The notes under the pieces are model-generated. The model had not been told where the DNA came from. It saw only the letters and a list, made by a program, of their open reading frames with translations, and did no database searches. The position numbers were made by a program, and so were the translations under genes. Shown piece by piece: positions 37,797 through 58,127 of a stretch of DNA of 64,000 nucleotides. Source of the stretch: Plasmodiophora brassicae (taxonomy: Eukaryota); the NCBI GenBank assembly GCA_036867785.1, contig CP145413.1, positions 620,001 to 684,000 of the forward strand, in the 5' to 3' direction. Positions within the stretch are counted from its first letter, which is position 1; each line of letters starts with the position of its first letter.

Positions 37797-37916
37797 GGTT
37801 ACATCACCATGCGGTTCCCCGGTGGTCCCCCTCCCGAGTACTGGACAGGCCAAACACCATTTGGCTTCGCAATTCGGAATGAGATACGGCACATTCGGTG
37901 TTGTATGAACGTAACC
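37797..37916 (-). rRNA. 5S rRNA (copy 1)
   Basis: 120 nt with complementary ends GGTTAC...GTAACC, internal AGTACT..GGGACC..GGGAA box-C-like region and a downstream oligo-T Pol III terminator. Confidence 0.92.
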
Positions 37917-38942
37917 GGAGGTCGACGACGGCTCAACTGATTCGAGCATGTCCGCCAGTGTTGAAGCCCGATACACGGTTCGGTTCGGATGTGAGATTGG
38001 CCCGTTTCGGTAAACGGCATCTGCAGTTGGGGCGGACGAGCGGCCACGAGCTGGAGGACGGGAGAACCCCCAAATGAAGACAGTAGTCGCTCACCGACCT
38101 GTGTCGGCGCCGGCGTGCGCGCCGCTGGCGGGCCGCAGTCCACGTCAAGCCCCCCGCCGTCGTCACCATTTTGGGTTTCATTGCGGGTGCGCCGAGCCGA
38201 AGTCGAACGGCGACCGACGCGACGCCAGCGTGTCGGGCCCAAACTGTCGGGCGCTAACCGACACGCACGGACGTGCTGGGGCCGCCAGGCAACCAGCGCA
38301 CGTCGCTGTTCGATGTGTCAGGTGCGCCCCCAATACCAGTCGCCGTCCACTCGATCACTACTCCAGTCTGGCGCATGCTGCTCGACATTACCGACAGCCC
38401 GGTCTACACTGCGCCAATGCTGGTGCACTGTTCCATCGGACCGGTCCCAAACATTGCATCCTGGGCTTTGCGCTGGGCAACAACAACGCCTGGACGGCCA
38501 GCATCTGGACAGGCGACAGGGTCGGCGTTTGGTGTTGGGAGACAACAACAACAAACGAAAGCACAGATACGCGGAAAGGAACAGGCGCCAGAAGGCCTCC
38601 AACAGCGCACGTCCATAGTTCCTGATTTGAACGCGTCGTTGTGGAGCAGCCCTGTCAGGACCTCCCCTTCCCCATGGAGATGCCCCCAGTGCCTGTGCCA
38701 ACCTGTCGGTACAACGAGAGACTCCGATGATCGCACAGTCACTGAGCGCGCCACTGTCGACAGGTTCCACAGGGCGGCTGTGAGTGTGTGTGTGTGTGTG
38801 TGGGACGCCTCTGGGACTGCCTGCGTGCAACGGGACGACGACGCTTGGAATCTGGCGCCTGTTCCTTTGCGCGTATCTGTGCGTTCGTTGTGGTTGGGGC
38901 TCCTTATACCACACGACGACCATACGTGCACCCTGCCATCCA

Positions 38943-39541
38943 ATGCCAATCGGCGAACGCGTTGTCGCTCGCCCGCGCGTCCGGGTCCCGAAGTTGTCGG
39001 TCCCGAAGGTGGCCGTTCCGAAGGTGCCGGTCCCGAAGGTGGTCGTCCCCAAGGTGGCCGTCGCGAAGGTGCCGGTGGCGAAGGTGGCCGTCCGGAAGGT
39101 TCAGGTGCCGAAGGTGGCCCGCCCGAAGGTTCCCGTGCCGAAGGTGGCCCGCCGGTTCCGGCGCCGAAGGTGGCCCGCCCGACGGTTCCGGTGCCGAAGG
39201 TGGCCGACCCAAAGGTGACCGTCCCGGCACAACGCCGGCTACCCGCGCCCAGCGCGAAGTCCTCGAAAGAAGACCGCCGCCGCCGGCAACAACAGGCTGA
39301 GCAGGCGCGTCAGCAACAACAGGCTGAGCAGGCGCGCCAGCAACAACAGGCTGAGCAGGCCCGCCAGCAAAGCCGCCGCTGCGTCTGCACGAAGTGCCGC
39401 CGGGCGCGGATCGCCATCTACGAGCGCGAAGTGCACACGCGCCTGGAGCAGGCGGCTCTCCAGAGGCGGCAGTTCCAAGAGCGCGAGGAGCTGGAGTGGT
39501 TCGCCGCCTACGAGGACGCCATCCAAAAGTTGTATGGGTGA
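38943..39541 (+). pseudogene. Basic VPKV-repeat / RQQQQAEQA-repeat ORF, frameshifted copy
   Basis: Same sequence as 56344-56946, but a 4-nt deletion near 39152 shifts the frame. Confidence 0.55.
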
Positions 39542-56700: not shown

Positions 56701-58007
56701 CGTCGGGCGGGCCACCTTCGGCACCGGAACCTTCGGGCGGGCCACCTTCGGCACGGGAACCTTCGGGCGGGCCACCTTCGGCACCTGAACCTTCCGTACG
56801 GCCACCTTCGCCACCGGCACCTTCGCGACGGCCACCTTGGGGACGACCACCTTCGGGACCGGCACCTTCGGAACGGCCACCTTCGGGACCGACAACTTCG
56901 GGACCCGGACGCGCGGGCGAGCGACAACGCGTTCGCCGATTGGCATTGGATGGCAGGGTGCACGTATGGTCGTCGTGTGGTATAAGGAGCCCCAACCACA
57001 ACGAACGCACAGATACGCGCAAAGGAACAGGCGCCAGATTCCAGGCGTCGTCGTCCCGTTGCACGCAGGCAGTCCCAGAGGCGTCCCACACACACACACA
57101 CACACTCACAGCCGCCCTGTGGAACCTGTCGACAGTGGCGCGCTCAGTGACTGTGCGACCATATACGGAGTCACTTGTTGTACCGACAGGTTGGCACAGG
57201 CACTGGGGGCATCTCCATGGGGAGGGGGAGGTCCTGACAGGGCTGCTCCACACCTACGAATCAGGAACTATGGACGTGCGGTGTTGGAGTCCTTCTGGCG
57301 CCTGCGCCTCTGCGCGTATCTGTGCCTTCGTTTGTTGTTGTCGTCTTCCCACACCAAACGACGACCTCGACGCGCCTGTCCAGATGCTCTCCGTCCAGGC
57401 GTTGTTGTTGCCCAGCAAAAGGCCCAGGATGTGATGTTTGGGGCCGGTGCGCTGGAACAGTGCACCGGCATCGGCGCAGTGTAGACCGGGCTGTCTTTCG
57501 TGTCGAGCAGCACCCGCCTGACCGGTGTAGTGATCAACTGGGTGGCGACGGGCAATGGAACCGCGCATCTACCTACAGGCGCATGACGTGGCTGGTTGCC
57601 TGGCGGCCCCAGCACGTCCGTGCGTGTCGGTTAGCGCCCGACATTGTGGGTCCGACACGCTGGCGTCGCGTCGGTCGCCGTTCGACTTCGACTCAGCGCA
57701 CCCAAATAAAGCCCCAAATGATGACGACGGCGGGGCCTTGACCTGGGCTGCAGCCGTCAGCGGCACGCACGCCGGCGCCGATACAGGTCGGCAGCGACTA
57801 GGCTTGTCTTCCGTTTGGGAATCTCCCGTGCTTCAGCTGGTGGCCGCCCGTCCCCCTCAGCTGCAGATGCCGTTTGCCAAAACGGGCCAATCTCGCGTCA
57901 TCGTTACTGGTCTTATTTGAGGCGGCAATGAAATGCCAAACCGAATCGTGTATCGGGCTTGAACACAGATGAACCAGATCGAATCATTTGAGCCGTCGTC
58001 GACTTCC
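53768..58007. repeat. Unclassified ~4.3-kb repeat, copy 2 (inverted), directly upstream of 5S copy 4
   Basis: Reverse complement of 37917-42177. Confidence 0.9.
56344..56946 (-). CDS. Hypothetical 200-aa basic protein: (V/P)VPKV repeats, RQQQQAEQA repeats and CVCTKC motif
   Basis: Open from ATG 56946 (MPIGERVV) to ..AIQKLYG*. Built from 15-bp and 27-bp units, followed by a T-rich UTR-like tract. Confidence 0.5.
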   Translation of the reverse strand: MPIGERVVARPRVRVPKLSVPKVAVPKVPVPKVVVPKVAVAKVPVAKVAVRKVQVPKVARPKVPVPKVARPKVPVPKVARPTVPVPKVADPKVTVPAQRRLPAPSAKSSKEDRRRRQQQAEHARQQQQAEQARQQQQAEQARQQRRRCVCTKCRRARIAIYEREVHTRLEQAALLRRQHQEREELEWFAAYEDAIQKLYG

Positions 58008-58127
58008 GGTTACGTTCATACAACACCGAATGTGCCGTATCTCATTCCGAATTGCGAAGCCAAATGGTGTTTGGCCTGTCCAGTACTCGGGAGGGGGACC
58101 ACCGGGGAACCGCATGGTGATGTAACC
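58008..58127 (+). rRNA. 5S rRNA (copy 4)
   Basis: Identical to copies 1-3, followed by TTTT. Confidence 0.92.

Follow-up and report, generated by a model that had tools for sequence, protein, structure and literature searches.

Most wtf genes of the fission yeasts Schizosaccharomyces octosporus and S. osmophilus adjoin dispersed 5S ribosomal RNA (rRNA) genes, and the model of duplication beside 5S genes is supported by lone 5S genes at syntenic empty sites (5/6 and 11/12 in two of the comparisons); the routes proposed are ectopic gene conversion and a circle that arises between direct 5S genes and reintegrates (PMC9562144, eLife 2022). Fission-yeast centromeres contain Five-S-Associated Repeats (FSARs), which are 0.6–4.2 kb long, about 90% identical within a class and in some cases carry open reading frames (ORFs) (Tong et al. 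2019, Nat Commun, PMC6538654); for S. osmophilus and its CenA repeats, 5S-mediated recombination has been invoked for homogenisation, an inversion and a presence–absence polymorphism (PMC10085805). Rearrangements and duplications bounded by genes transcribed by RNA polymerase III (Pol III), namely tRNA genes, and by other dispersed repeats are reported in yeasts (PMC2817429). The locus described here lies in Plasmodiophora brassicae, in a stretch of 64,000 nucleotides (assembly GCA_036867785.1, contig CP145413.1, positions 620,001 to 684,000 of the forward strand) that we refer to as the window, and coordinates are counted from its first letter. Two inverted arms of about 4.4 kb, each capped by a 5S rRNA gene, bracket a block of protein genes. 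The structure is probably an old inverted segmental duplication, formed in a loose cluster of dispersed 5S genes and with its outer breakpoint set by a 5S gene, rather than a transposable element.

Arm A (37793–42176) comprises a 5S gene and 4.26 kb from the upstream side of that gene, and arm B (53768–58131) is its inverted partner; both were delimited by repeat search, self-BLAST and global alignment. Self-BLAST of the window joins 37793–42176 to 58131–53768 in one inverted alignment (88.869% over 4465 columns, 5818 bits, E = 0), and the pair reappears as a series of collinear blocks in the repeat search. The collinear reverse-complement copies that an earlier note on this DNA had placed at 37797–42177 and 53768–58127 are thus real, with coordinates right within 4 bases. 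The global alignment of the arms contains 3951 matches, 336 mismatches and 174 gap columns, the last forming 28 indels of which 8 are multiples of three, so that identity is 92.2% on aligned bases and 88.9% with gaps counted. The term segmental duplication is by convention used for two copies, each 1 kb or longer and about 90% or more identical, that do not belong to a transposable element, and the two 4.4-kb arms are copies of this kind. Between them lies the enclosed block (42177–53767, 11,591 bases). The inner end of the arm B homology is 30 bases from the ATG of an ankyrin-repeat gene, as placed by a boundary alignment, the outer flanks of the two arms are unrelated to each other, and a translated self-comparison of the window revealed no older duplication around the arms.

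Four 5S rRNA genes are present in the window (Rfam, 82.6–82.7 bits; gathering score 38). The gene at 37796–37916 (minus strand, 82.7 bits) stands at the outer end of arm A and the gene at 58008–58128 (plus strand, 82.6 bits) at that of arm B; both are transcribed outward, into runs of seven and four T, respectively. The remaining two are on the minus strand inside the block, one at 42596–42716, separated by 420 bases from the inner end of arm A and followed by nine T, and one at 46950–47070, between a G-protein alpha subunit (G-alpha) gene and a GTPase-like ORF and followed by five T. The earlier note had one outward-pointing 5S gene capping each arm, with the outer homology ending at the 5S 3′ end and oligo-T, and in this it is borne out by Rfam and by an alignment of the four genes; the two further identical genes, at 42596 and 46950, had escaped it. 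The three same-strand genes (37796, 42596 and 46950) are spaced by 4800 and 4354 bases. No tRNA genes were found in the 64-kb window, the only other Rfam match in arm A at E ≤ 1 stays below the threshold (22.7 bits; gathering score 80) and is put down to chance, and a 48-base word of the 5S gene gave 0 matches in the metagenome collection.

Aligned together with 80-base flanks, the four 5S genes are identical over the whole gene, and their flanks share nothing, except those of arm A with those of arm B; within the global alignment of the arms, the 5S segment is 120/121 identical. The homology of the arms ends in the T-run, 3–4 bases beyond the 5S 3′ end, at both outer ends. In this respect both arms match a 5S-associated repeat or 5S-mediated duplication of the fission-yeast kind, in which the unit abuts a dispersed 5S gene and the similarity between copies ends there. 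Arm A is situated between the direct 5S genes at 37796 and 42596, with 420 unshared bases before the second, and arm B has a 5S gene at its outer end only. The four genes have eight ends in about 20 kb, and by our arithmetic a breakpoint placed at random would come within 5 bases of one of these ends in roughly 0.4% of cases; owing to the rarity of such a coincidence the 5S gene was probably involved in the breakpoint. Common to all four copies (37796–37917, 42596–42717, 46950–47071 and 58008–58129) are the transcribed unit, one upstream base and the T-run only.

Identity varies along the arms, being 85.3% over 37917–38726, 98.1% over 38727–40240 and 89.8% over 40241–42176 in arm A coordinates. 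The high-identity core of 1.5 kb (38727–40240 in arm A, about 55646–57161 in arm B) has 29 mismatches to 1482 matches, and the remainder of the arms 306 mismatches to 2346 matches (Fisher p = 2.3e-33). It contains an ORF described below and reaches about 700 bases beyond the stop of that ORF, over sequence without coding signal, and for this reason we read it as a probable gene-conversion tract and not as the product of selection alone. The unconstrained parts of the arms differ by 10–15%. Judged from these sequence comparisons, the duplication is old and the arms have exchanged sequence since; the difference between 98.1% in the core and 85–90% elsewhere suggests that they still do so. A crossover in the core would invert the 11.6-kb block, and the remark of the earlier note that recombination between the copies would have this effect is a reasonable one. 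Substitutions between the arms comprise 186 transitions and 150 transversions, with 58 transitions in CpG context and 18 in CpA/TpG context, the latter being the context expected of fungal repeat-induced point mutation; this spectrum is ordinary.

The arms resemble the fission-yeast wtf–5S arrangement in that a gene-bearing unit of a few kb is duplicated beside dispersed 5S genes and the similarity between copies ends at the 5S gene. The circle route proposed there needs direct 5S genes, and arm A lies between two, with 420 unshared bases before the second; the wtf cargo gene has an expanding and contracting coding repeat, and the ORF of the arms is likewise repeat-bearing. Two copies are known here, in contrast with 5–83 in the wtf–5S yeasts, and they are inverted and 11.6 kb apart on one chromosome. 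Further differences are the single 5S gene of arm B and a cargo ORF that resembles neither wtf nor wag and bears no mark of a driver. The organism, too, is unrelated to the fission yeasts, has introns of 50–63 nt in these arms, and its sequence is also present in runs labelled plant metagenome.

With FSARs and CenA repeats, the arms share their size, an identity of about 90%, a 5S gene contained in or abutting the repeat, and the presence of ORFs in some. [quoted passage not shown] A regional centromere with a gene-free core of distinct composition was considered and set aside, the block being gene-bearing and ordinary in GC content (56–64%, like the rest of the window, where GC ranges from 51 to 68%). 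With the tRNA-bounded rearrangements of yeasts, the locus has in common a short, highly transcribed, multi-copy Pol III gene exactly at the breakpoint; here the gene is a 5S gene, and the host a plant-associated microbial eukaryote with GC-rich DNA and introns. A literature search on 5S rRNA in Plasmodiophora brassicae yielded no paper of relevance by title or abstract, and one on inverted duplications at dispersed 5S genes yielded nothing relevant.

Contigs from other studies bear on the assembly of the locus. Sequence of the stretch 36500–43500 occurs in 20 listed sequencing runs from 8 studies; 19 of these contain at least half of the sampled words, and all 19 look like one species. Contigs from two DNA runs of different studies (X2 and X9) and from two runs presumed to be RNA (X16 and X15) were mapped to 37400–57399 at 80% likeness. 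The inner junction of arm A (42176) is bridged with zero differing letters by a contig in each DNA run (42010–42614 in X2, 42010–42608 in X9), as is the inner junction of arm B at 53768 (47044–53910 in X2, 47043–53910 in X9). Three joints on opposite strands (38498/57389, 41647/54240 and 41233/54577) were rejected as inversions; they connect homologous arm positions, have short sides of 39–82 letters and are attributed to cross-mapping at 80% likeness. The block was thus seen in no inverted form, which contigs as short as these would not have revealed in any case. No long loose ends were found inside the arms or at the inner ends among the best-supported loose ends listed, beside which there are 190 more. 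Copy number was not taken from contig depth, which is unreliable for this purpose: by the tool's own caveat, summed contig depth is not copy number, and here it is inflated by internal tandem repeats.

A duplication anchored at a 5S gene would have proceeded as follows. A 5S gene already present at the recipient site may have supplied the homology for the copying event, since the outer edge falls 3–4 bases from the end of the 5S transcription unit. The copying may have taken place by ectopic gene conversion, by break-induced synthesis with its priming site inside the 5S gene, or by circle reintegration, in which the sequence between the two direct 5S genes flanking arm A would be excised and would reintegrate at another 5S gene; copying primed by homology in the 5S gene at the recipient site would be the simplest route. 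The inner end would have been sealed without homology, at a distance from the ankyrin ATG of 30 bases if in arm B, or from the next 5S gene of 420 bases if in arm A, and later gene conversion between the arms would have homogenised the core. It would belong with the known segmental duplications that are anchored by a repeat, here at a Pol III gene. If dispersed 5S genes set duplication edges in this genome as in fission yeasts, small identical Pol III genes would be general anchors for duplication and inversion in compact eukaryotic genomes.

Several points weigh against this account. Which way the copying went, and that 5S homology took part in it, is inferred and not shown. Only two copies of the unit are in evidence, both in the 64-kb window, and further copies would favour a mobile or spreading unit. 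With a 5S gene on one side of arm B only, the circle route would need a later loss of the inner 5S gene, and the high identity of the core could partly reflect selection rather than conversion. A contig of the left flank (37400–37818) stops inside the 5S gene, 25 bases past the arm edge, which is below the 31-base rule for bridging, so that among the contigs listed the outer junction has no independent bridge. Finally, summed contig depth over some stretches of the arms exceeds the twofold value expected from cross-mapping, with 3 to 3.8 single-copy equivalents in X2 and as many as 5 in X9.

The earlier note had left two alternatives, a 5S-associated mobile unit and a 5S-bounded segmental duplication, and the evidence goes with the second. 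Cassandra TRIMs (terminal-repeat retrotransposons in miniature, with 5S sequence in their long terminal repeats, LTRs), Dada DNA transposons and 5S-derived short interspersed nuclear elements are mobile elements linked to 5S or small RNA genes, and like the arms they have a 5S gene at the end of the repeated unit. A non-autonomous element carrying or targeting 5S genes would also account for the sharp edge at the 5S 3′ end and for the position of arm A between two direct 5S genes, and further copies would be compatible with the contig depth, which is more than twofold in some stretches of the arms. We nevertheless consider such an element distinctly unlikely, as the arms have none of the marks by which those families are recognised, being without an LTR pair, terminal inverted repeats, a target-site duplication, a transposase or a reverse transcriptase. 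The longest word shared by the flanks, where the earlier note had suggested a search for target-site duplications, measures 4 bases in the case of arm A and 5 in that of arm B, lengths reached in 942 and 506 of 1000 shuffles, and thus nothing beyond chance. In arm A the repeats are internal, consisting of tandem families and one 39-nt inverted pair, with neither terminal inverted nor long terminal repeats; there is no A-tail, the inner end having a C-run (42011–42028) and no A-run. None of the 20 stop-to-stop ORFs of at least 100 aa in both arms has a transposition domain, or indeed any Pfam family, at E ≤ 0.01, so that the absence of a recognisable transposase or reverse transcriptase, already remarked in the earlier note, holds over all 20. 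Two of the four 5S genes in the window stand without the unit, next to unrelated upstream DNA, a divergence of 10–15% speaks against recent movement, and the best-supported loose ends listed include no long ones in the arms or at their inner ends. The unit itself is 4.4 kb of spliced, host-type DNA, and its 5S genes are intact and identical to the free-standing copies.

The other explanations keep the duplication but differ in what they make of the 5S gene, or of the assembly. As a heavily transcribed Pol III gene, it could act as a fragile site at which forks stall and break, with fold-back or template switching producing the arms and no part played by 5S homology; this is a minor possibility, which would suit a breakpoint within 3–4 bases of a transcription terminator and has a counterpart in the yeast rearrangements reported as bounded by tRNA genes and other repeats (PMC2817429). 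Because other inverted repeats and palindromes of the window (29566–30023/33341–33761, 30014–30817 and 34553–35081) have no 5S gene, inverted duplication does occur here without help from one. Fold-back, however, yields a palindrome of adjacent arms, whereas these arms are 11.6 kb apart and both have a complete 5S gene, and the unrelated outer flanks fit a second, pre-existing 5S site more simply. That the 5S gene is a mere passenger of an ordinary segmental duplication that happened to end there is quite unlikely; with four 5S genes in 20 kb duplications would often include one, but a random breakpoint would lie within 5 bases of a 5S end in only the small fraction of cases given above. There is only a slim chance that the arms are what is left of a tandem array of 5S genes, its unit being about 4.4–4.8 kb long and one unit having become inverted. 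The same-strand spacings of the 5S genes do come near the arm length of 4384, yet the spacers (42717–46949, and 47071 onward) have no nucleotide or translated similarity to the arms and hold conserved genes, those for G-alpha and the GTPase. Long inverted repeats are a known source of mis-joins, but misassembly is very unlikely here and is given almost no weight, because contigs from two independent studies cross both inner junctions without difference and the arms differ at 336 positions, as well as by 28 indels.

The ORF within the core is intact in arm B, where it begins with ATG and encodes 200 aa (56347–56946, minus strand). The predicted protein has a P/K/V-rich repeat whose period is 15 nt, a 27-nt repeat (QQQAEQARQ) in three copies and a helical-looking C-terminal tail, both repeat periods being multiples of three. 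Its copy in arm A (38943–39541, plus strand) is frameshifted relative to arm B by a 4-base gap at 39153. The codon-usage score used here is crude, having been trained on eight ORFs of the window (seven above the Pfam curated cut-off and one below); in the arms it is positive mainly over this ORF, and in arm A the best frame switches near 39060–39090, which fits the 4-base gap that breaks the copy there. Over the last 126 codons, the two arms differ by 7 synonymous and 5 non-synonymous codon differences. A longer ORF of 427 aa in arm A (38258–39541) was not accepted as a gene, apart from the final ~126 codons, which form part of the 200-aa ORF; it has no relatives, and its upstream frame shows 14 synonymous and 39 non-synonymous differences between the arms, a roughly neutral ratio.

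A word-seeded search found no relatives of either the 200-aa or the 427-aa ORF. An exhaustive search with the 200-aa ORF gave 400 matches at E ≤ 0.001, the top one 34% identical. Among the 150 of these that were listed, the best stretches all begin in residues 2–52, mostly over the P/K/V repeat, and none is confined to the C-terminal tail or close enough to be an annotated copy; the matches are read as compositional and were not accepted as homologues. There was also no usable match in the protein atlas. On these searches, the 200-aa ORF is taken as a putative orphan, absent from public annotation.

In the part of arm A that lies downstream of the ORF (~39.8–42.1 kb), the codon-usage score gives no coding signal and the divergence between the arms is even, at about 10%. 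This part is spliced (39995–41456, plus strand in arm A), with joints present in X16 and X15 only. Joint 40595>40659, in two contigs of each presumed-RNA run, corresponds to an intron of 63 nt (40596–40658, or shifted by +3) with GT..AG ends; joint 41403>41457, in one contig of each, to an intron of 53 nt (41404–41456), also GT..AG; and joint 41235>41286, again in one contig of each, to an intron of 50 nt (41236–41285) whose ends are non-canonical as printed. In arm B, joint 55830>55892 (61 nt, CT..AC) is seen in X15 only, and an arm A intron at 39995–40055 is inferred from it. None of the four joints occurs in the DNA runs X2 and X9, and X16 has zero depth over 48072–51406, where the DNA runs are fully covered; X16 and X15 are treated as RNA on these two grounds, their RNA status being a guess, as they are not recorded as such. 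The spliced transcript looks non-coding. In each arm, the orphan ORF and the spliced transcript run inward and the 5S gene faces the opposite way. The arms contain an unannotated, expressed orphan ORF together with a spliced, apparently non-coding transcript.

A more far-reaching idea, which we put forward as speculation and hold to be unlikely, is that the arms are two members of a lineage-specific 5S-associated family, in which a cassette of the orphan repeat-protein gene and the spliced non-coding RNA would copy between 5S sites, the dispersed identical 5S genes providing a portable homology; in addition, the still-converting arms may flip the block between isolates. Such a family would be an independent parallel to the wtf/wag–5S system of fission yeasts in an unrelated, plant-associated microbial eukaryote. 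For the locus itself, the block of G-alpha, GTPase, LRR and ankyrin genes may vary in orientation between isolates, as it is flanked by arms that still exchange sequence.

On the upstream side of the 5S gene at 42596–42716, the segment 43643–44480 has about twice the single-copy contig depth in the DNA runs (444 against 259.5 in X2, 96.9 against 49.9 in X9). One of the contigs has an insertion variant of 2 bases (GA) at 44030, and long loose ends are located at 43203, 43488 and 44667. Self-BLAST found no second copy of the segment within the 64-kb window, which together with the doubled depth places a near-identical copy elsewhere in the genome. The doubled depth next to this 5S gene is a hint toward a wider 5S-associated family. 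The segment is transcribed and includes a minus-strand ORF (43670–44077) without a Pfam family.

The block contains ORFs for G-alpha, a GTPase, an ion-transport-like protein, an LRR protein and an ankyrin-repeat protein, and presumed-RNA contigs cover most of these ORFs. The G-alpha gene (45216–46370, plus strand) is in two ORF pieces, both assigned to Pfam PF00503 (E = 9.4e-33 and 1.2e-41). The ankyrin-repeat gene (52707–53738, minus strand) encodes 344 aa, matches Pfam Ank_2 (E = 1.9e-38) and has its exact protein on public record. By eye, a hydrophobic, signal-peptide-like stretch follows its first 57 residues; translation may therefore start at the second M, and secretion of the protein is possible.

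Left of arm A is a second inverted repeat (29566–30023/33341–33761, about 83% identical), placed around a 786-aa ORF (30981–33338, minus strand) without a Pfam family, and directly inside its left arm is a palindrome (30014–30380 against 30817–30451). A small palindrome lies at 34553–34703 against 35081–34931, 72–78% identical in translated matches. Further left is a direct paralogous pair, comprising 17335–17835 against 20568–21068 (59% at the protein level) and 16345–16710 against 19614–19979.

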